NCBI GenBank assembly: GCA_022508785.1
Contig: JAFLUN010000001.1
Location: 12,971-74,762 of the forward strand
Source of the DNA: Oscillospiraceae bacterium
GTDB lineage: Bacteria; Bacillota; Clostridia; Oscillospirales; Acutalibacteraceae
DNA: 61,792 bases
Reading direction: 5' to 3'
How positions within the stretch are numbered: position 1 is the stretch's first letter; every line of letters starts with the position of its first letter. Below are positions 6,885 through 59,385 of the stretch, in pieces. The translations under genes and the position numbers were made by a program. The notes below the pieces were generated by a model. It worked only from the letters and a program-made list of their open reading frames with translations, had not been told where the DNA came from and did not search any database.

Positions 6885-7724
6885 TTAACCTTTTACGGAC
6901 GGATAAAACTTGTCTTCTGCGTTTGAATAAATCTTGAGCTTTTCTAAAGAATTTGAGTAGTCAATAACCGAAATATCCGTTTTACAGTTATTGACGAAAA
7001 TCTTGAATAGGTCGTCAGATTTTTCGCTGTTTTCAGGCGTCAAAGCACTTGCGAGAATATCGCACATAATGCGTGATTTTTCTTGTATTTCAGCGATAGC
7101 TAAATATTTATATGCATATTCGTCTGAGAGCTTTTGCGTGCCTTTATCAAGACTTACGTTAAATTCAGACGATTTATAGTTAACGTCTTCCGCAACGTTT
7201 ACCGTTACTCCGCCCAGTGATGCAATAATCCGCTTAAACTGTGATGCAGTACAAATTACATACTTATCAACGGAAAGGTCAAAATCAGCATTTAAGCGTG
7301 ATTTAAGACCGCTTATAAACTCGGTATCGTAAATATCCCTATAAGTTTTTCCGTCTGAAAGCTTTTGATTTGCATCAAAAGAGGCAACCGTCATACTTTT
7401 TGAATCAAAATCTGCAGTTATTATAAATCCGAAATCGGCGTTGGAAGAATCGTCTGTCAGCATTAAAAGATAGACCGATTTCCCCGAAAGCTCTGAGACT
7501 GAGTAAGTCTGCTCATCATTTGTCGGAGCATCGGACGGCGCTTCTGTATTCGTTCTGTCAATAATATTTCCCAAATCAAAATCAAGGGAACGCATAAAAA
7601 GAAAAGCCGAAAATGCAGATAAAATTACAATAAACAAAGAAAAAGAAAGTACAATATATTTAAAATTCGGATTTTTGTTTTTCACTTTTTTAGGCTTAGA
7701 AAACAAATCGTTATTCTTTTTCAT
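6885..7724 (-). CDS. Membrane-anchored protein with a divergent LytR-CpsA-Psr (LCP)-like domain
   Basis: N-terminal TM helix. The ectodomain layout YLLMLTDD...FIITADFDSKSMTVASF...VDKYV...FKRIIASLGGVTVNV parallels LCP domains but lacks the usual Arg residues. Confidence 0.4.
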   Translation of the reverse strand: MKKNNDLFSKPKKVKNKNPNFKYIVLSFSLFIVILSAFSAFLFMRSLDFDLGNIIDRTNTEAPSDAPTNDEQTYSVSELSGKSVYLLMLTDDSSNADFGFIITADFDSKSMTVASFDANQKLSDGKTYRDIYDTEFISGLKSRLNADFDLSVDKYVICTASQFKRIIASLGGVTVNVAEDVNYKSSEFNVSLDKGTQKLSDEYAYKYLAIAEIQEKSRIMCDILASALTPENSEKSDDLFKIFVNNCKTDISVIDYSNSLEKLKIYSNAEDKFYPSVKG

Positions 7725-7835
7725 AACAACCGCCGTGCAATACAGAATGTAAAGAAAAATAAATGTTTATTCTGTTACGGTACCTTCCCTTTCTTAATAT
7801 TTTTCACACTAACTCAATAGAAACACACAATCTGT
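7725..7835 (-). promoter_or_regulatory. Conserved 5' leader, copy A (unclassified cis-regulatory RNA candidate)
   Basis: The minus strand reads UUAGUGUGAAAAAUAUUAAGAAAGGGAAGGUACCGU (core 7777-7810), then CUGUAUUGCACGGCGGUUGUUAUG. It is paralogous to 9307-9440 and 41857-41970. Confidence 0.55.
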
Positions 7836-7839
7836 ATTT

Positions 7840-7868
7840 ATTATAACACAAATGCGAGGTATAAACAA
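7840..7868 (-). promoter_or_regulatory. Putative sigma-A promoter (TTGTTT-17-TGtTATAAT)
   Basis: Extended -10 TGTTATAAT on the minus strand (7840-7848), with a weak -35 at 7863-7868. It lies just downstream of the preceding gene's terminator. Confidence 0.45.
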
Positions 7869-7877
7869 TACAAACCT

Positions 7878-7909
7878 AAAAAATATACCGCATACATACA
7901 GTATGCGGA
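7878..7909 (-). terminator. Rho-independent terminator after the sugar transferase gene
   Basis: On the minus strand, the CCGCATA/TATGCGG stem is followed by UAUAUUUUUU. Confidence 0.6.
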
Positions 7910-7923
7910 TAAATTTTATAGGT

Positions 7924-9306
7924 TTACTCCATAGGCTCCGTAAAGTGGTACTTTAACTTTTCGCCTTTTCCGTCAAAAGCCTCCGTACTGTCAGAAGCCT
8001 TCAGCAGAACCGTTACGGTTTGAAGTATCAGCTTAAAATCCAGCCATAAGCTGTAATGCTCAATGTAAAGCAAATCGAGAACCAGCTTGTCCTTAGGAGA
8101 GGTATTGTATTTACCCGCTATCTGACCGTAACCTGTAAGACCGCCTTTTACGCGCAGCCTGTAAGAAAACTCCGGAATTTCAGCCGTGTATTTATCAACA
8201 TTTTCAACCATTTCAGGACGAGGGCCTACAACGCTCATTTCACCTTTTAAAATGTTGATAAACTGAGGAAGCTCGTCAATACGGAATTTACGCAAATACT
8301 TGCCTACTTTTGTAATACGGTCATCGTCAGAGGTAACAGACTTATTGTAGCTCCCCTCTTCCTTCATTGTTCTGAACTTATAAACCATAAAGAGCTTTTC
8401 GCCCTTAGTTGCCCTCGCCTGACGGAAAAATACATGACCGCCGTCCTCAAGCTTAATAAGCAAAGCACAAACCAGCATTAACGGACCGAACACAATAAGC
8501 GCTACAAGAGAAATGAGGATATCCATAAAACGCTTAATGAATTTTTGCTCTAACGTTAAATCACGGACAACGGCGGAAACCACCGGCTTGTCATCAAGAA
8601 GAGTAGTTCTGGCACCTAATGCCACAACATCATTCATTTCAAAATTATAATAAATGTTTTTCTTGCTCGCGTAGCAATATTCATTTAAGACTATCTTTTC
8701 ATTCTGCGGAACATCGTAAAGAAAAATTGTGTCATTTCTGTTGATGACATCAAACACATTCGGAGACGTATAATGAATCATATCCGTTATTTTATATTGC
8801 TTGCGGTACTTTTCAATTTTTAAAGCAATATTGTTAAGTGATTTTTCCGAAGAGGTTATAATACAGCAATTCTCAGGGGGATTTATTGTAAAATAAACAT
8901 AATTTCCTAGATAAGCAAACAAAACAATTGCTGTAATTTGAATTGCCATAACAATAATAAGTCTACCCGGCGATTCAAGAACAAAATGGTCATTATTGTG
9001 AGCGTTAACGCTCATTATGCAAAATTCAACATAAGTTACAAGGTCCGTAACAAGCGTTGCCAATGACATAGAAATAATGATAGGTTTGGATTTTAGTCTT
9101 CCGATAAGATAACCGCCGTAAACTGAAATGGTTGCGGTAAGAACAACGCAAAACGTAACAAGCGAAACGCCCGATGTTCTTGAAAGACCGAGAACCCATT
9201 CATATTTTAACCCGAAAACGATAAAAAATGCCGCAACTATAACGATATATAAAGTAGCTTTCAAAAGAAAAAAAATACTGTTTTGGAATTTATATAGAAC
9301 TTTCAT
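7924..9306 (-). CDS. Polyprenyl-phosphate hexose-1-phosphate transferase (WbaP/EpsL-type bacterial sugar transferase)
   Basis: Multi-TM N-terminus, with C-terminal KRFMDILISLVALIVFGPLML...FRQ...YKFRTM...DDRITKVGKYLRKFRIDELPQFINILKGEMSVVGPRPE. Start set at ATG 9306 by leader homology with copy A. In-frame alternatives are 9315 and GTG 9333. Confidence 0.85.
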   Translation of the reverse strand: MKVLYKFQNSIFFLLKATLYIVIVAAFFIVFGLKYEWVLGLSRTSGVSLVTFCVVLTATISVYGGYLIGRLKSKPIIISMSLATLVTDLVTYVEFCIMSVNAHNNDHFVLESPGRLIIVMAIQITAIVLFAYLGNYVYFTINPPENCCIITSSEKSLNNIALKIEKYRKQYKITDMIHYTSPNVFDVINRNDTIFLYDVPQNEKIVLNEYCYASKKNIYYNFEMNDVVALGARTTLLDDKPVVSAVVRDLTLEQKFIKRFMDILISLVALIVFGPLMLVCALLIKLEDGGHVFFRQARATKGEKLFMVYKFRTMKEEGSYNKSVTSDDDRITKVGKYLRKFRIDELPQFINILKGEMSVVGPRPEMVENVDKYTAEIPEFSYRLRVKGGLTGYGQIAGKYNTSPKDKLVLDLLYIEHYSLWLDFKLILQTVTVLLKASDSTEAFDGKGEKLKYHFTEPME

Positions 9307-9440
9307 AATCGCCATGCGATACAGTCTTCGCACAAAAAGTCATAAAAAGGCCTTCCGTGCACGGTACCGTTCCTTTCTTCGTGTTTTTCACACTAATAAT
9401 CCACAGCAAAATGATTCAGTCTGCATTATTGCTTTATTTT
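9307..9440 (-). promoter_or_regulatory. Conserved 5' leader, copy B (unclassified cis-regulatory RNA candidate)
   Basis: The minus strand reads UUAGUGUGAAAAACACGAAGAAAGGAACGGUACCGU (core 9361-9395), then a U-rich tract and CUGUAUCGCAUGGCGAUUAUG. It lies downstream of a near-consensus promoter. Confidence 0.6.
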
Positions 9441-9445
9441 GAAAT

Positions 9446-9474
9446 ATTGTACTTTATATATACTAATTTGTCAA
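9446..9474 (-). promoter_or_regulatory. Sigma-A promoter TTGACA-17-TACAAT
   Basis: On the minus strand, TTGACA (9469-9474), a 17-nt spacer and TACAAT (9446-9451). Confidence 0.6.
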
Positions 9475-34315: not shown

Positions 34316-34915
34316 TTACTGTTCGGTCTTATTATTAAAAATAAGTTTTTTAACTGCTACAAATCTCATCAAAGCAACAACAACTGCTATTGTAATTACA
34401 AGCTCGGGAAGAATGTAGGTTGCATTATAACAAATTGAATAAAGCAACGGTGCGTTTTCAAAGGTGGATCCGAAAATCTCCCACTGGTCAAGATATGCAA
34501 AAATGAAATATCCTGAAATAACGTGAGAAACAAAGCGGAGTAAGAATGCTAAGCTCAGCCCTGCGTAAAGCCCTGCTTCGCCCTTCTTTTTGAATATACC
34601 TGCAATTCCTAAAACGGTAAATGCAACTATGTAGTCAAATAAAATGCAACCCACAAGCATAAGCGGAGTAAGACCCCAACCTAAAATTCCGTCCATAGCT
34701 ATTCCGAGAATTAGCTGGAAAATCGAGTAAATGAATGAGGAAAAAAAGCCCCATTTTACTCCGTAGCGGAATGAGAGAATGCAAATCGGGAGCATACTCA
34801 CAAGTGTTACCGAACCGCCCAGAGGCAGTTTGAAGATTTTGACCATGGATAATGCTACTGCCAATGCAATAAAGACAGCAGTTTCCGTAAGTCTCATAAC
34901 GTTTTTCTTTTTCAT
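34316..34915 (-). CDS. thiT: Thiamine transporter ThiT (ECF S-component, YuaJ family)
   Basis: Resembles YuaJ: GGSVTLVSMLPICILSFRYGVKWG...DYIVAFTVLGIAG...HVISG...YNATY. GGAGG precedes the ATG at 34915, and a TPP riboswitch lies directly upstream. Confidence 0.8.
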   Translation of the reverse strand: MKKKNVMRLTETAVFIALAVALSMVKIFKLPLGGSVTLVSMLPICILSFRYGVKWGFFSSFIYSIFQLILGIAMDGILGWGLTPLMLVGCILFDYIVAFTVLGIAGIFKKKGEAGLYAGLSLAFLLRFVSHVISGYFIFAYLDQWEIFGSTFENAPLLYSICYNATYILPELVITIAVVVALMRFVAVKKLIFNNKTEQ

Positions 34916-34931
34916 TTTTAGTTCCTCCAAA

Positions 34932-35072
34932 TAAAAAAATTCAGCCAAGGGAAATACACGCTTTGGCTGAAACATTTTGCTTCCTACGTCGGTATTATCC
35001 GCATCAGGTTCAATGGTTGAGGGAAGATTTATTCCCAATCTCAGCTGACTTTACGGTCAACACCCATGCACA
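34932..35072 (-). promoter_or_regulatory. TPP (THI-box) riboswitch with terminator expression platform
   Basis: The minus strand reads GGGUGUUGACC...CUGAGAUUGGGAAUAAAUCUUCCCUCAACCAUUGAACCUGAUGCGGAUAAUACCGACGUAGGAAGC. The hairpin UUCAGCCAAAG...CUUGGCUGAA plus U7 (34932-34971) follows. Confidence 0.88.
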
Positions 35073-37704: not shown

Positions 37705-37708
37705 AAAA

Positions 37709-38046
37709 AATGAGTAAATCTGTAAGCCGGGTTCTGTCGTTTAAGGCAATTATCTATCTGCGATGTGCGTTGCCGCACACCTGAAGCCGTCTTTCGAAGT
37801 ATCTGCCCAGCTGACAACTTCTGCTGACGTTGCATCGGGTAGGGTTTGCTTGGCCGTTACATCTCTGCAACGCCGGTGAGCTCTTACCTCGCCTTTCCAC
37901 CCTTACCGAAAAAATCGGCGGTATTTCTCTATGCACTTTCCCTAAGGTCGCCCTCGGCGGCTGTTAGCCGTTACCCTGCTGTGTGATGCCCGGACTTTCC
38001 TCACTAAATCTTAGCGATATTAGCGCAACTGCCCAATCTACTCATT
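37709..38046 (-). ncRNA. rnpB: RNase P RNA, bacterial type A
   Basis: The minus strand contains the universal P4 strands GAGGAAAGUCCGGGC and ACAGAACCCGGCUUA, plus AGGGAAAGUGCAUAGAGAAAUACCGCC. P1 pairs GAGUAGAUU (38035-38043) with AGAUUUACUC (37712-37721). Confidence 0.9.
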
Positions 38047-38665: not shown

Positions 38666-39679
38666 TTAATATCCGTTAGGGTTGTTAGACTGCCAGCGCC
38701 AGGAATCCTCGCACATTTCTTCAATTCCTCTTTTAGCTTCCCAGCCCAGTTCTTCTTTTGCCTTTGACGGGTCTGAATAGCAAACCGCTATGTCGCCTGC
38801 ACGGCGGGGAGCAATTTTATAAGGTAATTCCTTGCCGTAGGCTTTGTTAAATGCTTTTACAATATCAAGAACGCTGTAACCTACGCCTGTTCCAAGGTTA
38901 AATACTTGAACCCCTTTTTCGCCTTCAAGGATATTTTCAACGGCTTTAACATGACCTTCCGCCAAATCCACAACATGAATGTAATCTCTAACTCCCGTGC
39001 CGTCAGGTGTGTCATAATCGTCGCCGTAAACGCTCAAAAACAGACGTTTGCCAATTGCAACCTGAGTAATGTACGGCATAAGATTGTTGGGTATTCCGTT
39101 GGGATTTTCACCTATCTTGCCGCTTTTGTGAGCGCCGATAGGATTGAAATAGCGAAGAAGCGTAGCGTTCCACTCACTGTCTGCCTTGCAAATATCTTCA
39201 AGAATTATTTCTATCATATATTTTGTTGTGCCGTAAGGATTAGTTGTGCCGCCTGTTTTCATTGTTTCCTTTAAGGGCGAAACATTATTCATACCGTAAA
39301 CGGTGGCTGACGAGCTGAAAACGATATTTTTGCATCCGTTATTTCTCATAACATCGCAAAGCTTTAAAGTTCCACCGATATTATTGTCATAATATTCCAG
39401 CGGCTTTTCGCAGGATTCACCTACCGCTTTAAGACCGGCAAAATGAATTACGGCGTCAATTTTATTCTCTTTAAAAATTTTGTCCATTCCTTCAGTATCA
39501 CGAATGTCACATTCATAAAACTTAAAGTCTTTTCCCGTTAGTTCTTTAATTCTGTCGAGCACCTTGGGGCTTGAATTGTAATAATTGTCGACTATTACAA
39601 CTCCGAACCCTGCATTCAAAAGCTCAACGCAGGTGTGCGAACCGATATAACCTGCTCCGCCCGTTACTAAAATATTCAT
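38666..39679 (-). CDS. galE: UDP-glucose 4-epimerase
   Basis: GGAGYIGSH Rossmann motif and the YGTTK catalytic motif. ATG 39679 overlaps the upstream TGA by 1 nt, with GGAGG 8 nt upstream. Confidence 0.9.
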
Positions 39680-41856
39680 CAATTTGCCTCCTTAGCAAGC
39701 GTTGTATTCGCAAAATATGTTTTGAGGATTCTCTCATAATTGTAGCCTTTTCCTGCTAAAGCGTTTGCCCCAGCTTTACTCATACCTACACCGCAGCCGA
39801 CACCGTATGAGGTAAATGTAAACGTTTCAGAAGAGCTGTCATAGCTGAGCTTAAAGCAGCTTGATTTAATTCCGAGATCTGAAAGCTTTGTAATAAATTC
39901 GTATCCTGTTAAATCCTGGCCGCCTACTCTGACGGATTTAACATAGCCTACCGATGAAGAAACGGCATTATTGCGCTCTCTTACGATTATCCATTTTGTG
40001 GGGTCGGAATCAACGTCAATTTCGAAATCTGCTTTAAGAAGGATTCCCTGAACCTCACCGCGCTTGAGCTGAACCGTATTTTCATATCCTTCAACAGAAG
40101 CTTCGGGGTTACCGTCAAGTCTTGAAACAGCTCGAAGATACGGATATCTTTCGCTGAATACCATTGATGCGTCGGCAGTACCGCCTGCTGCAATTTCAAA
40201 GAACGGTGTAAGAGCAACCTCTCCGTTGTAGGAAATGTATCTGCCGAACACATCGCTTACTGCAACCTCAACCTCTTGTGTAACAGCCTTTTCTATCTGT
40301 ACGCCGTCAATTTGGAAACCGTTGTCCTTGTATTTAAGATACGTGTAAATTACAATAGCCTGGGCTTTTATAGCTTCCATTTCGTAGCCTTCGCCCATTT
40401 CAGTCATAACAAGACCTGCAATAGCGTCTTTGGCAGGCAATTTTTCACCGTTAACGGTTATAAATTCGGGAGCGCCTTTGTCTTCCTCAACCTCGCCCTC
40501 GGAGGGTTTTTCTTCGCCCTCCGTGTTGTTCGTAGCAGGTTCGGATTCCGATGGCTTTTCCGCTTCTTCCCTGTGCTTTTTCTCAATTTCAAGTATATCC
40601 CCAATTATAAAGTCGGATATTTTAAGCTTATTCTCGTTAGTTTCTGGCGCCGGTTCTGTGGTAGGCGCCTGAGTTGTGGGCGGTTCGGTTGTTGATTCTG
40701 TTGTAGTTTCATAACCGAATAATTTACGAAGGGCAGTTGCAGCAGAGCCGTTTTCACCCTGCATTTTGAATACAACTGCAAGCACTGCGCAAAGAAGAAT
40801 TACAACGCCTAAAATAATTGCAAGTATGGTTACTGTTTTTTTGCTTGACTTTTTCTCCATTGGCTCTGCAGGTTCGGAAGGAGCATCAGACACCTCAATG
40901 CCGACGCTTCTGATTCCTGCGGCTCTTTCGCCGATAAGCTCATAAAGCTCTGCCGCAACACTTTCAATAAAAGCTTCTTCCGTTTCACCGTCGTCAAGGT
41001 AAAGCTTTCTTACGGTTGCATTTTCGTCATCAGCAACTGCAATGCAAATATATTTTGACTCCCCTGTTTCGTAAATATCGCTTATGGAAGCGCCAATGTT
41101 GGCGGCGGACAAATCAAGACTTACGCGGGCGAGCTGTGCGGCATATTCTGTGGCATTAACCTCGCCTTTATCCTCAACGTGAGGAGTAAACACCACTACG
41201 TCGTTGAAGTGCTCAACTGCTTCGCCTAAATTTTTCAACGCTTCGGAATTTGCCGTGCCGTTAACAGCAACAACAGAGCCTGTCTCCCAAAGCCGTGAAA
41301 TTGCAATTTCTACTTTTTCATTATCAAAGTGCTGTGTTTCCGAAAGAATGCTTGCAACTTCTCCGCCGAGACCTTCTGCCAAATAGGGAACAACACCGTT
41401 ACGAAGAATTATATTGATTCTGTCGTCGTCAATTGGAATTACAACAATATATTTTTCACCGTTGTCTATTCCGAAGCCCGAATACATTCCGTCTTTTGAA
41501 AGGAAAACCGTTGCAGGCTCGGGGAAGGATGCGAAATCCTTTCTCTGCTCGTCGGAAAGAGAGTCGTTATTTTCAAGCATATTAAGAACTGCCGGGCTTT
41601 GAACATTTTCAACCTCAAACGCCTGAGCTATAGCAGTTTTAAGCTTGAAATAACGCTTTTTGTCAACAGCAATTACGATTATATCGTCATTTTGAAGCGC
41701 ATTCTGAAAGCCTTCAAACAAATTGAGCATTTTTTCATAATGCACAAAGGTTTCATTACCCTCAGTATATTCTTTTAAGCTGCTGACTACCCTTGCCTGA
41801 AATTTTGCAAAGGGAATGCTCTTTTCAGTATTAAGCGATAAAAGTCTAACCTTCAT
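39679..41856 (-). CDS. SpoIID/LytB-domain protein with a large N-terminal cytoplasmic module and a single TM helix
   Basis: The C-terminus has [25 protein letters not shown]...[32 protein letters not shown]...[31 protein letters not shown], the SpoIID signature. TM helix is [22 protein letters not shown], followed by a Thr/Pro/Glu linker. AAAGGTGA precedes the ATG at 41856. Confidence 0.8.
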
Positions 41857-41970
41857 TTTAATCACCTTTCAGTACATTTTTCACACAAGCGTTATAAAAA
41901 TCGCCTTGCGAACAGTACCGTTCCTTTCTTCGTTTTTCACACACAACACACGTTTAATTTATAAAACTAT
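41857..41970 (-). promoter_or_regulatory. Conserved 5' leader, copy C (unclassified cis-regulatory RNA candidate)
   Basis: The minus strand reads GUGUGAAAAACGAAGAAAGGAACGGUACUGU (core 41912-41943). It is followed by UCGC-AAG-GCGA plus U5 and a second GUGUGAAAAAUGUACUGAAAGGUGAUU module that carries the SD. Confidence 0.55.
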
Positions 41971-58036: not shown

Positions 58037-59385
58037 TATACTAACCTTTCTTCAATAACCTTTGCTATACACTCTGCCAAATACTTAATTTTATCGTAAT
58101 CCTTGCCCTCAAGCATTACACGGACTAAAGGCTCCGTTCCCGACACACGCACAAGAACACGCCCGTCGTCACCCAACTCTTCACTGGCTTCTCTGATTGC
58201 AAGCTGAACCTCTTCGTCCTTTTCAAGCCTTGTTTTGCCAAAATTCGATACACGGACGTTGATAAGAACCTGCGGAAATACCTGCATTTCATTTGCAAGC
58301 TCCGAAATCTTTTTGCCCGTTCTTTTTAAAACATTTAAAACCTGAATTGCCGACATTTGCCCGTCACCCGTTGTGGCGTGGTCAAGGAAAATAATGTGAC
58401 CTGACTGCTCACCGCCGATTGAATAGCCGTTTGCAACCATATTTTCAAGAACATATCTGTCCCCTACTTTTGTTTTTTCACAATGAATACCGTTATCCTC
58501 ACAGAACTTAAAGAAGCCCATATTACTCATTACGGTGACAACGGCAGTATCTTTCTTAAGATTTCCATGCTGTTTCATATATTTTGCGCAAAGGGCAATT
58601 ACCTTGTCGCCGTCAATAATTTCGCCGTCTTCATCTACGATAAGCATTCTGTCTGCATCGCCGTCAAAGGCAAAGCCTATGTCACACTTATTCTCAACTA
58701 CGAACTTTTGAAGACCCTTCATATGAGTGGAGCCGCAATTTTCGTTTATGTTTGTGCCGTTAGGCTCTGCATTGATTATATAACACTCGGCGCCCAAACG
58801 GGTAAACAACGCCTTTGCGGTAACGGAAGCCGAGCCGTTTGCACAGTCAAGAGCAATTTTCATACCCTTAAAATCGCCGTCTGAGGTCATAGCCAAATGG
58901 AAAATGTAATCGTCAACGGCGGAATTTGAAAAAGAAATACTGCCCACGTCTCCGCCCAGCATTACGGGGGGGATTTTCGTTTCATCAAGAATTATTTCTT
59001 CTATTTCATTTTCAAGCTCATCGGGAAGCTTGTATCCGTTATATTGGAAAATTTTAATTCCGTTATATTCACAAGGGTTATGCGATGCGGAAATCATCAC
59101 GCCTGCATCGTAATTATACTCCCTAACAAGAAATGCAACTGCCGGTGTGGGAACAACGTCTAAAATGAGCACGTCTGCGCCCACTGAGCAAAGCCCTGCG
59201 CTGATGGCAGAAGCGAGCATATGTGAGGATGCTCTTGTGTCCATACCGATTAAAACCTTCGGCTTATGAGAGCAGCTCTCCGTTAAAACCATTGCGGCGG
59301 CTCTGCCGATTTTCATTGCCAGCTCACATGAAAGCTCACTGTTTGCAACGCCGCGTGCGCCGTCTGTTCCGAATAATCTTCCCAT
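58036..59385 (-). CDS. glmM: Phosphoglucosamine mutase
   Basis: LFGTDGARG, SASHNP, DGDADR and GGEQSGH motifs. Confidence 0.93.
   Translation of the reverse strand: MGRLFGTDGARGVANSELSCELAMKIGRAAAMVLTESCSHKPKVLIGMDTRASSHMLASAISAGLCSVGADVLILDVVPTPAVAFLVREYNYDAGVMISASHNPCEYNGIKIFQYNGYKLPDELENEIEEIILDETKIPPVMLGGDVGSISFSNSAVDDYIFHLAMTSDGDFKGMKIALDCANGSASVTAKALFTRLGAECYIINAEPNGTNINENCGSTHMKGLQKFVVENKCDIGFAFDGDADRMLIVDEDGEIIDGDKVIALCAKYMKQHGNLKKDTAVVTVMSNMGFFKFCEDNGIHCEKTKVGDRYVLENMVANGYSIGGEQSGHIIFLDHATTGDGQMSAIQVLNVLKRTGKKISELANEMQVFPQVLINVRVSNFGKTRLEKDEEVQLAIREASEELGDDGRVLVRVSGTEPLVRVMLEGKDYDKIKYLAECIAKVIEERLV

Follow-up and report, generated by a model that had tools for sequence, protein, structure and literature searches.

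A dispersed, sense-oriented leader element, possibly a mobile translation-start cassette, in Oscillospiraceae-type Clostridia

Background

An element of about 85-95 nt immediately precedes the start codons of three genes in a 61,792-nt stretch of the genome of an Oscillospiraceae bacterium (GenBank assembly GCA_022508785.1, contig JAFLUN010000001.1; the whole stretch is called "the window" in what follows). The described systems that come closest to it are the MIRUs (mycobacterial interspersed repetitive units), which, as one source has it (PMC12548453, citing Supply 1997), "insert themselves at start codons" and carry a coupled internal open reading frame (ORF). By the same source they are short interspersed repeats (40-100 bp), co-oriented with the flanking genes and placed in intercistronic or start regions, apparently mobile and occasionally in tandem; their insertion is tolerated since expression is preserved, and the internal ORF can end on the downstream start codon. 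The element of the window resembles MIRUs in these respects, down to an overlapping AUGA in two copies of the family (at loci L002 and L012). It also departs from them: it belongs to Clostridia rather than Actinobacteria (sequence homology is not expected, given phylum and base composition); its internal ORF is not maintained in all copies; it adds a long covarying hairpin, an upstream Shine-Dalgarno (SD)-like octamer and an SD of its own in substitution for that of the host; and near-identical copies are found in genera of very different GC content. We know of no MIRU-like family outside mycobacteria, and literature searches turned up none.

The BOX, RUP, SPRITE, Correia and ERIC repeats of Firmicutes and other bacteria (PMC3049150) provide a second comparison: like the element described here, they are shorter than 200 bp, AT-rich, capable of forming a stem-loop when transcribed, patchy among close relatives, and co-transcribed with neighbouring genes. 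They have terminal inverted repeats and/or target-site duplications, however, whereas terminal inverted repeats are absent here; and they concentrate downstream of genes or occur in either orientation, whereas this element, in every case seen, is in sense and immediately 5' of the start.

Two further precedents concern the ribosome. The STAB-SD of Bacillus thuringiensis cry3A, a 5' mRNA stabiliser (Agaisse and Lereclus 1996, as relayed in PMC4113751), is a sequence resembling an SD (GAAAGGAGG type), placed a long way 5' of the start, that can pair with the 3' end of 16S rRNA without directing initiation. As so relayed, it is short, occurs singly and lies near a processed 5' end; the element is instead a repeated, structured cassette of 90 nt, for which stabilisation is a prediction. 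In the split ribosome-binding sites (RBS) of T4 genes 25 and 38, a hairpin between SD and start codon could create a functional distance (PMC3014915), and the element has a similar disposition: GGA and the AUG in the loop of a potential 3' helix (P3) are 4 nt apart once the main hairpin (P1/P2) is closed. The T4 sites are, however, single and vertically inherited; here two SD-like halves flank the hairpin, and the annotated AUG is another 9-15 nt downstream.

Weighing these comparisons, we favour, with moderate assurance, the view that what precedes the three genes is, in three copies, an undescribed translation-start cassette of a MIRU-like kind, dispersed, specific in its orientation and probably mobile. 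Mycobacteria already provide repeats of this kind; what is new is the architecture, together with the possible split SD.

Three copies before three unrelated genes

An initial annotation of the window, made from its letters, had pointed to three minus-strand leaders with a near-identical core and to a second conserved module abutting the start codon. Both observations stand. Copies A, B and C (Table 1) share the core, each ends at a start codon, and at all three genes the second module, CUGUAUCGC-AUG-GCGAUU with variants, directly adjoins the ATG. A degenerate 33-nt pattern of the core matches the window solely at 7777-7809, 9361-9393 and 41912-41944, and matched none of 100 dinucleotide-preserving shuffles. 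A covariance model built from 11 family members scores copy B at 95.1, copy A at 80.6 and copy C at 76.8 bits (E 1e-15 to 1e-19); with the filters off, the next-best match in the window reaches 16.8 bits, so that the window holds exactly three copies. (That match, at 58452-58488 on the minus strand, has no hairpin; it is a module-1-like UUGUGAAAAAACAAAAGUAGGGGAC..AUAUG inside a 449-aa ORF, its position is kept in related strains, and it is probably due to chance.) In a strain with an identical RuvC protein, the 10 kb past the window's high-coordinate end contain no copy.

The leader matches no family in Rfam. Rfam 15 at gathering thresholds finds only RNase P RNA and a thiamine pyrophosphate (TPP) riboswitch in the whole window, neither of them in the regions of the copies; around copies B, A and C, relaxing the threshold to E<=10 adds only chance-level matches (9-17 bits, to eukaryotic snoRNA and miRNA models and to CRISPR models). 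A known RNA family was rejected on this count, and the leader is left unclassified, as the initial annotation, failing to match it by eye to any familiar riboswitch consensus, had supposed.

The three genes encode an LCP (LytR_cpsA_psr) protein, an initiating sugar transferase and a SpoIID-domain protein, the last 100% identical to a database protein (P0122) over 725 aa. Their Pfam assignments support the argument, already made in that annotation, that non-homologous genes share the leader and that it is not a by-product of gene duplication.

Table 1. Positions, in the window, of the three copies, their parts and the genes and promoter beside them
Feature	Position	Strand	Remarks
Copy A, whole element	7725-7809	-	GUGUGAAAAA 7809-7800; AGAAAGGG 7794-7787; host ATG 7724-7722
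Copy A, P1 and SD	P1 AGGUAC 7785-7780 / GUAUUG 7743-7738; SD-like GGCGGUU 7734-7728	-	
Copy B, whole element	9307-9393	-	from 5' GUGUGA to own SD-like GGCGAUU; host ATG 9306-9304; model match 9304-9398
Copy B, module 1	9369-9393	-	GUGUGAAAAACACGAAGAAAGGAAC; predicted single-stranded, left unpaired in minimum free energy folds
Copy B, GUG-UGA	9393-9388	-	GUG 9391-9389 at the place of the ancestral ATG in empty alleles (alignment)
Copy B, AGAAAGGA	9378-9371	-	complement of the last 8 nt of Firmicute 16S rRNA; predicted duplex -12.3 kcal/mol
Copy B, hairpin	9317-9369	-	P1 CGGUAC (9369-9364) / GUAUCG (9322-9317) around P2 (9360-9330, GCACGGAAGG...CUUUUUGUGC)
Copy B, 3' module, optional P3	9307-9320	-	AUCGC (9320-9316), loop AUG (9315-9313), GCGAU (9312-9308); P3 overlaps substitute SD GGCGAUU (9313-9307), SD-like duplex -4.2 kcal/mol
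Copy C, whole element	41860-41944	-	starts 27 nt past the stop of the upstream sortase gene (41973-41971); host ATG 41856-41854
Copy C, octamer, P1 and SD	AGAAAGGA 41929-41922; P1 CGGUAC 41920-41915 / GUACUG 41875-41870; SD GGUGAUU 41866-41860	-	
LCP gene (LytR_cpsA_psr), downstream of copy A	6885-7724	-	Pfam PF03816
Initiating sugar transferase gene (Bac_transf), downstream of copy B	7924-9306	-	Pfam PF02397, E 8e-63
SpoIID-domain protein gene, downstream of copy C	39679-41856	-	725 aa; Pfam PF08486; start ATG 41856-41854
Sigma-70-type promoter of the sugar transferase gene	9446-9474	-	TTGACA-17-TACAAT; not part of the element

A family dispersed among Clostridia

Beyond the window, a scan of one genome per species with the pattern GTGAAAAA-N0-9-GAAAGGNANGGTAC gave seven matches with the full architecture: two in Oscillospiraceae bacterium HAN081, one in Candidatus Fimenecus, one in the Oscillospiraceae metagenome-assembled genome (MAG) ABMPRH_77_0 and three in Neglectibacter sp. 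X58. The other five matches of the genome scan, in unrelated phyla, are chance. A pattern scan of metagenomes contributed one further true copy (locus L022); and the model later found those at L051, L052, L053, L054 (two) and L055. The family as it stands comprises 18 copies, scoring 38-112 bits, at 13 independent sites. They can be dense locally, with three in the 62-kb window, five in 19 kb of Neglectibacter sp. X58 loci and two in the 14-kb locus L054. In Neglectibacter sp. X58 an esterase gene is preceded by two tandem units with a period of about 91 nt (L009, 2895-3096, plus strand), which the strict pattern had missed and the covariance model brought to light; they have a variant 5' end (AUCAUAAAAAUUU in place of GUGUGAAAAAUAC) and CGAUAC/GUAUCG as P1. 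A third copy lies 3.9 kb from this pair, on the other strand of the locus.

The hosts found, Clostridia of the Oscillospiraceae type, comprise the window's lineage, HAN081, Neglectibacter, Ca. Fimenecus and some further MAGs (the NCBI taxonomy puts Neglectibacter in Oscillospiraceae and Ca. Fimenecus among Clostridia incertae sedis). They differ widely in base composition, and the copies do not follow suit: those of the window's lineage (41% GC) and those of Neglectibacter-type contigs (56-60% GC) are 80-93% identical to each other, and in both settings the copies have about 42% GC, that is, they are AT-rich within the GC-rich hosts. Copy B is 84-85% identical to the Neglectibacter copies, 75% identical to the copy at its own site in the relative L051, and 70-71% identical to copies A and C. 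Similarity of this order across genera may be a sign of horizontal spread, or of strong constraint. An origin in phages or plasmids was considered and rejected: the covariance model confirmed none of 11 pattern matches in IMG/VR, and blastn against plasmid and phage collections gave no match.

What is constant about the family is its position. With the sole exception of the upstream unit of the tandem pair, each copy points the same way as a start codon and stops at it; the 3' end of the element is 0-7 nt from the ATG; and all 13 sites, whether at a start or in an intercistronic gap (sortase-SpoIID and iscS-thiI are among the latter), have the orientation of the flanking genes. What is inconstant is the function of the gene that follows: LCP, Bac_transf, SpoIID-domain protein, Rrf2 regulator, PRA-CH (hisI), PRA-PH (hisE), Mur ligase, AccD-type carboxyltransferase, ThiI, Eda-type aldolase, esterase, a DUF7310 coiled-coil protein and a 69-aa unknown. 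Several of these genes are internal cistrons of housekeeping operons (his, mur, acc, iscS-thiI), and no functional coherence was found among the genes downstream of the 13 sites. The suggestion in the initial annotation of a dedicated regulator of envelope or glycopolymer genes does not survive this list, nor the gain and loss among relatives described next.

Filled and empty alleles

Why should a leader stand before one gene and be missing before its close orthologue? Presence/absence polymorphism with conserved flanks is seen at four sites. Site B (the sugar transferase gene) is filled in the window and, with a diverged copy, in a relative at 91% identity (L051); it is empty in HAN081 (locus L010, 95.9%) and in orthologues at 70-88%, the loci L042, L043 and L049 being among the empty ones. 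The 70-88% group, with transferases 88, 85, 75, 72 and 70% identical, keeps the gene order clpX-(eamA)-transferase-LCP-transglutaminase-folE-folP-folB-folK, and a covariance-model scan of 160 kb of these loci found no copy. Site A (LCP) is filled in the window and in HAN081/L010, and empty in the orthologous loci whose transferase is 70-88% identical (L042 and L049 among them). Site C (SpoIID-domain protein) is filled in the window, L053 (93%), L054 (84%) and L055 (76%), and empty in L057 (67%), which has a 36-nt spacer in its place. The iscS-thiI site is filled in L054 only, where the copy begins at the stop codon of the upstream gene, and is empty in the window, L053 and L055. Conservation upstream of orthologous genes, the check proposed with the initial annotation, therefore divides the copies: C is kept down to 76% and gone at 67%, while the sites of A and B are empty at 70-88%, and that of B even at 96%.

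The empty alleles are informative in themselves. Promoter and 5' untranslated region (UTR) are conserved, about 87 nt are missing, and an ancestral SD-spacer-ATG is intact; the intergenic regions differ in length by the length of the element (282 nt filled and 194 nt empty at site B). At sites A and B the ancestral ATG falls opposite the GUG of GUGAAAAA, and HAN081 at site B reads ...UUUGGAGUGCUAUU-AUG. By these alignments the element sits between the host's SD and the host's ATG. The host flanks just 5' of it agree in showing SD-like pairing (mean -6.1 against a background of -2.7 kcal/mol; 7 of 15 flanks at -6 kcal/mol or lower, against 9.5% of the background). The TTGACA-17-TACAAT promoter that the initial annotation had noticed upstream of copy B is indeed there (9474-9446, minus strand), and since it is kept in relatives that have no element it must belong to the host gene. 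Taken together, the alleles, which are the decisive evidence, indicate that the element is gained and lost between close relatives, over short evolutionary times, and this pattern points to an interspersed insertion element and not to the signal of an ancestral regulon.

Among the filled alleles of site C, which extend to 76% protein identity, module 1 and GGUGAUUAAAAUG are invariant; the flanks and the interior of P2 change, P2 shrinks or is replaced, and neighbouring intergenic bases are saturated with changes.

An allele of another sort is found at site A of the 91% relative (L051, 5965-6011, plus strand): its 5' UTR is some 20-24 nt longer than that of the empty alleles and reads GGCAAAAAUUUAUGAAAAGGCGAUGCCGUACU-AUG. 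It is possibly an internally deleted remnant, with module 1 and the GUAC of P1 joined straight to the ATG; the covariance model does not score it.

Ends and movement

Mobility is suggested by the polymorphism just described; the ends of the element may offer a hint of mechanism. Short direct repeats flank some copies (GATTGGT at L009a, GATTAT at copy B, GATA at the thiI site; none at the other sites), and each of them coincides in part with the conserved end GGCGATT of the element itself and with the resemblance of the host flank to an SD and its spacer. Spread via microhomology between the host's SD-spacer and the GGCGAUU end, as at L009a and copy B, is a possibility. A 10-nt direct repeat around copy B (AGACUGAAUC/AGACUGUAUC) was not used, about 0.3 such repeats being expected by chance on our own estimate. 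The 5' end of copy A (GUUAGUGUGAAAAAUAUUAA, 7794-7813) is identical at 15 of 20 positions to the start region of its gene (GUUGUUAUGAAAAAGAAUAA, 7711-7730), 83 nt downstream, which could reflect a target duplication, microhomology, or the commonness of AUGAAAAA gene starts.

Is the element, then, a selfish or neutral DNA repeat and nothing more? Such a repeat, comparable to one of the miniature inverted-repeat transposable elements, would have no role as RNA; insertions between RBS and start would be the only ones tolerated, on account of its SD-like 3' end. Insertion polymorphism at four sites, AT-richness in GC-rich hosts, one tandem duplication and the decay of old copies (the diverged copy and possible site A remnant of L051, the truncated P2 of L053, the lost hairpin of L055) are all as this explanation would have them. 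The strict specificity for strand and position at 13 of 13 sites is hard to attribute to tolerance alone, however; terminal inverted repeats and a clear target-site duplication are absent; orthologous copies show substitutions that preserve structure (G.U to A-U and C-G to U.G between copy B and L051); and module 1 is invariant at site C amid intergenic bases saturated with changes. We regard a repeat with no RNA role as quite improbable.

Anatomy and RNA structure

Read from 5' to 3', the consensus consists of (R)UGUGAAAAA; 3-5 variable nt; AAGAAAGGAAC; the 5' arm of P1, CGGUAC; CG(G); a P2 hairpin of 20-45 nt with the base GCAC(R)AAAGG...CUUUUUGUGC and a variable top; GAAUUC; the 3' arm of P1, GUAUCG; C-AUG-GCGAUU; 0, 3 or 6 nt; and the gene's AUG. 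P1 and the variable P2 together make a hairpin of 50-60 nt, and the substitute SD, GGYGAUU, is about 4 nt from the host AUG. Minimum free energy (MFE) folds leave the 5' tract unpaired and form the P1/P2 hairpin in most copies. The hairpin of copy B folds at -25 kcal/mol (z -2.0); copy A, the least well folded (z +1.25), has an alternative stem, ACAGAAU/AUUCUGU. In an alignment of the 18 copies 90.9% of P1+P2 cells are paired, four pairs have changes on both sides, and covariation is above that of 500 of 500 shuffles and of all slid controls; the alignment was fitted to the model, so that this covariation is supportive and not conclusive. P2 has no conserved loop or bulge, and in old copies it shrinks or is replaced. 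Two other helices fared less well. Only some copies have a predicted 5'-terminal P0 hairpin (GUGU/AYAC), which was set aside as not conserved. P3 (AUCGC/GCGAU), which would sequester the SD-like GGCGAU and which shares AUC with P1, is paired in 85.6% of cells across copies; this is no excess over shuffles, it is missing from the site C copies, and P3 was rejected as a proven SD-sequestering helix.

The 5' module (GUGUGAAAAA...GGUAC) resembles the 3' module (GUGCGAAUUCUGUAUC), and copy C contains an exact 11-nt repeat, UGUGUGAAAAA, at 41877-41887 and 41933-41943, 56 nt apart. The likeness of the two modules may go back to an old internal duplication, or the modules may be two half-sites for a binding partner.

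A promoter within the element was also considered. For ECF-sigma (extracytoplasmic function sigma factor) or other promoters the GGAAC ... CGT spacing is inconsistent and the supposed spacer is the best-conserved part, so that this was rejected; a promoter scan found no sense-strand promoter inside copies A or B. On the opposite strand, at 7803-7831 and 9387-9415 (plus), the reverse complement of GUGUGAA in copies A and B is a -35-like TTCACA; paired with a weak -10 in the host flank it gives 9/12 matches each, which is chance level.

A leader of this anatomy invites comparison with translational riboswitches. The A-rich tract and P1/P2 would be the sensor, for a ligand or a protein, and P1 in competition with an SD-sequestering P3 would switch translation on, many genes thereby answering to one global signal; this extends the idea of the initial annotation beyond envelope genes. 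There is a conserved, structured leader ending at the RBS; GUAUCG, the 3' arm of P1, shares bases with AUCGC, the 5' arm of P3, whose other arm is the SD, making the two pairings mutually exclusive in the classical geometry of an expression platform; the core is kept across genera, with P1+P2 covarying; purifying selection acts on module 1 at site C; and some riboswitches also come as tandem pairs. Other features speak against a riboswitch: the leader matches no Rfam family, its hairpin is simple and varies (P2 having neither conserved loop nor bulge), P3 pairs no better than in shuffled controls and is missing at site C, the genes downstream form no coherent regulon and some of them are cistrons inside his, mur, acc and iscS-thiI operons, and gain and loss before orthologues is rapid, to the point of absence in very close relatives. 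A riboswitch or protein-binding leader is accordingly judged unlikely, if deserving of a hearing.

Rebuilding a start

If the element is not a sensor, what might it do for the gene that receives it? The translation-start cassette that we prefer would act in cis, at the level of the mRNA. On insertion between the host's SD and start codon, its 5' GUG would land where the host start codon had been, behind the host SD; its unstructured A-rich tract would offer AGAAAGGA, an 8-nt complement of the 3' end of 16S rRNA; and the cassette would rebuild an RBS for the downstream gene by three routes, alone or combined: (1) direct initiation at the substitute SD GGYGAUU; (2) a start at the 5' GUG, read-through of the hairpin and termination at or near the AUG, that is, coupling as proposed for MIRUs; (3) pairing of the 16S tail with the two SD halves, bridging the hairpin at its base--a split SD. 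A rebuilt initiation region would explain how an insertion at so sensitive a place comes to be tolerated. The analysis establishes the status of the element as a repeat family, its position and anatomy, the polymorphism of its insertion, the covariation of its hairpin and the want of a common function among its genes; the mechanism of its movement, its effect on translation or on mRNA stability and whatever regulation may go with it are inferred.

As to the first and third routes, the duplex of AGAAAGGA with GAUCACCUCCUUUCU, the assumed 16S tail, is predicted at -10 to -12 kcal/mol in 13 of 15 copies, the octamer being 65-75 nt upstream of the AUG; in L051 it is weakened (AAUAAAGG, -6.3 kcal/mol). 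The AUG-proximal GGYGAU is predicted to pair less strongly than this octamer, at -3.5 to -11 kcal/mol. The two are predicted to pair with adjacent, non-overlapping parts of the 15-nt tail, and in 4 of 5 copies tested, cofolding with it predicts a three-way junction from which the hairpin is extruded. The codon that the hairpin would bring near is the NUG in the loop of P3, and only about half of the copies have a start codon there.

That codon (9313-9315, 7734-7736 and 41863-41865 in the window), which is AUG, GUG or UUG where it is a start codon at all, lies at a distance of 9, 12 or 15 nt from the gene's AUG in every copy and hence in frame. The GUG of GUGCGAA, too, is mostly in frame. The pattern goes back to no more than two independent indels (p about 0.1), but could mean alternative, N-terminally extended starts.

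As to the second route, the ORF that begins at the 5' GUG meets no stop until a point between -4 and +14 nt relative to the AUG at about 10 of 13 sites, despite frame-shifting indels. Apart from the AUGA already mentioned, it ends 1 nt before the AUG in L004 and L011 and 5-14 nt past it in L009a, L052 and copy B; in L022 it is fused in frame. This is not to say that the element encodes a protein, a candidate rejected in view of 1-2 nt indels that change the frame between copies and early stops in several of them. A peptide search of 5.8 billion proteins returned a single, miscalled ORF (P0121), which did no more than lead to another copy.

The same pairings could be read differently, as the mark of a positively selected 5' mRNA stabiliser or translation enhancer, with AGAAAGGA recruiting a non-initiating 30S subunit that would either shield the mRNA from 5'-3' decay, in the manner of a STAB-SD, or serve as a standby site or split SD spanning the hairpin. 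Module 1 holds the strongest anti-SD complement of the leader, in single-stranded RNA far from the AUG; the three-way junction makes use of both halves; and precedents exist in the STAB-SD (PMC4113751) and the split RBS (PMC3014915). The pairing is a purely thermodynamic prediction against an assumed 16S end, however; the octamer of L051 is weakened; the most consensus-like copies carry GGCGAU, which has a mismatch with the 16S tail and suits P3 better than would GGUGAU; and several copies are intercistronic, where a stabiliser of 5' ends is less obviously useful. We hold this, too, to be improbable.

Of similarly low probability is a bolder version of the cassette itself: a horizontally spreading RNA device that takes over initiation regions and uses either the 16S tail as a splint or a start-stop or upstream-ORF hand-over, from the displaced host SD, that brings ribosomes to the original AUG, and so constitutes a mobile, self-contained, possibly switchable, split-SD initiation module. 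In a model of the splint, AGAAAGGA would pair with UCCUUUCU-3' and GGYGAUC with GAUCACC, across the extruded hairpin. To our knowledge, a mobile split Shine-Dalgarno initiation module is a kind of element that has not been described in bacteria.

Several points weigh against the translation-start cassette and temper our preference for it. The 16S tail used throughout is assumed from that of Firmicutes in general. The ORF from the 5' GUG is not universal, closing early in copy A, copy C and the L054 copy at thiI, and neither its peptide nor its frame is conserved. P3, and with it a P1/P3 switch, has no statistical support. Module 1 is strongly conserved beyond the SD-like octamer (GUGUGAAAAA, GGAAC), which RBS function alone does not explain; this part could be a binding site for a protein or ligand. 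A repeat search of the three copies and their flanks found no inverted repeats at the termini, only internal ones (P1/P2 and palindromes), and neither a mobilising enzyme nor an unambiguous target-site duplication was found. Finally, only about 20 copies were recovered, and the genome and metagenome scans relied on a strict pattern.

Neighbouring features of the window

Between the sugar transferase and LCP genes, a terminator-like hairpin stands 3' of the former (7888-7908, minus strand), and past it, at about 7835-7870 (minus), is an extended -10-like TGTGTTATAAT that is kept in relatives. With these two features the LCP gene probably has its own promoter, which would place copy A some 20-25 nt into the transcript.

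The two known RNAs of the window are both on the minus strand. The TPP riboswitch (RF00059; 34964-35077, 63.4 bits, E 4e-10) is upstream of an ORF at about 34316-34960, and in L057, a syntenic relative, the matching place is taken by a Thia_YuaJ (thiamine transporter) gene. The RNase P RNA (37707-38044) is of the bacterial class A, RF00010, full length at 255 bits.

Significance

A conserved, structured leader before envelope genes can turn out to be a mobile repeat and not a riboswitch, which is a warning for motif-discovery pipelines that rank candidates by intergenic conservation. If the interpretation favoured here is true, a MIRU-like family exists outside mycobacteria, one that colonises the nucleotides between RBS and start and survives by supplying a replacement initiation region. 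Its copies would amount to a natural experiment in rewiring initiation regions--upstream SD, hairpin, substitute SD, coupling--with a resemblance to the bicistronic and insulator designs of synthetic biology. The presence or absence of copies could also help to tell strains of uncultured gut Oscillospiraceae apart, much as MIRU-VNTRs (variable-number tandem repeats) do in mycobacteria.

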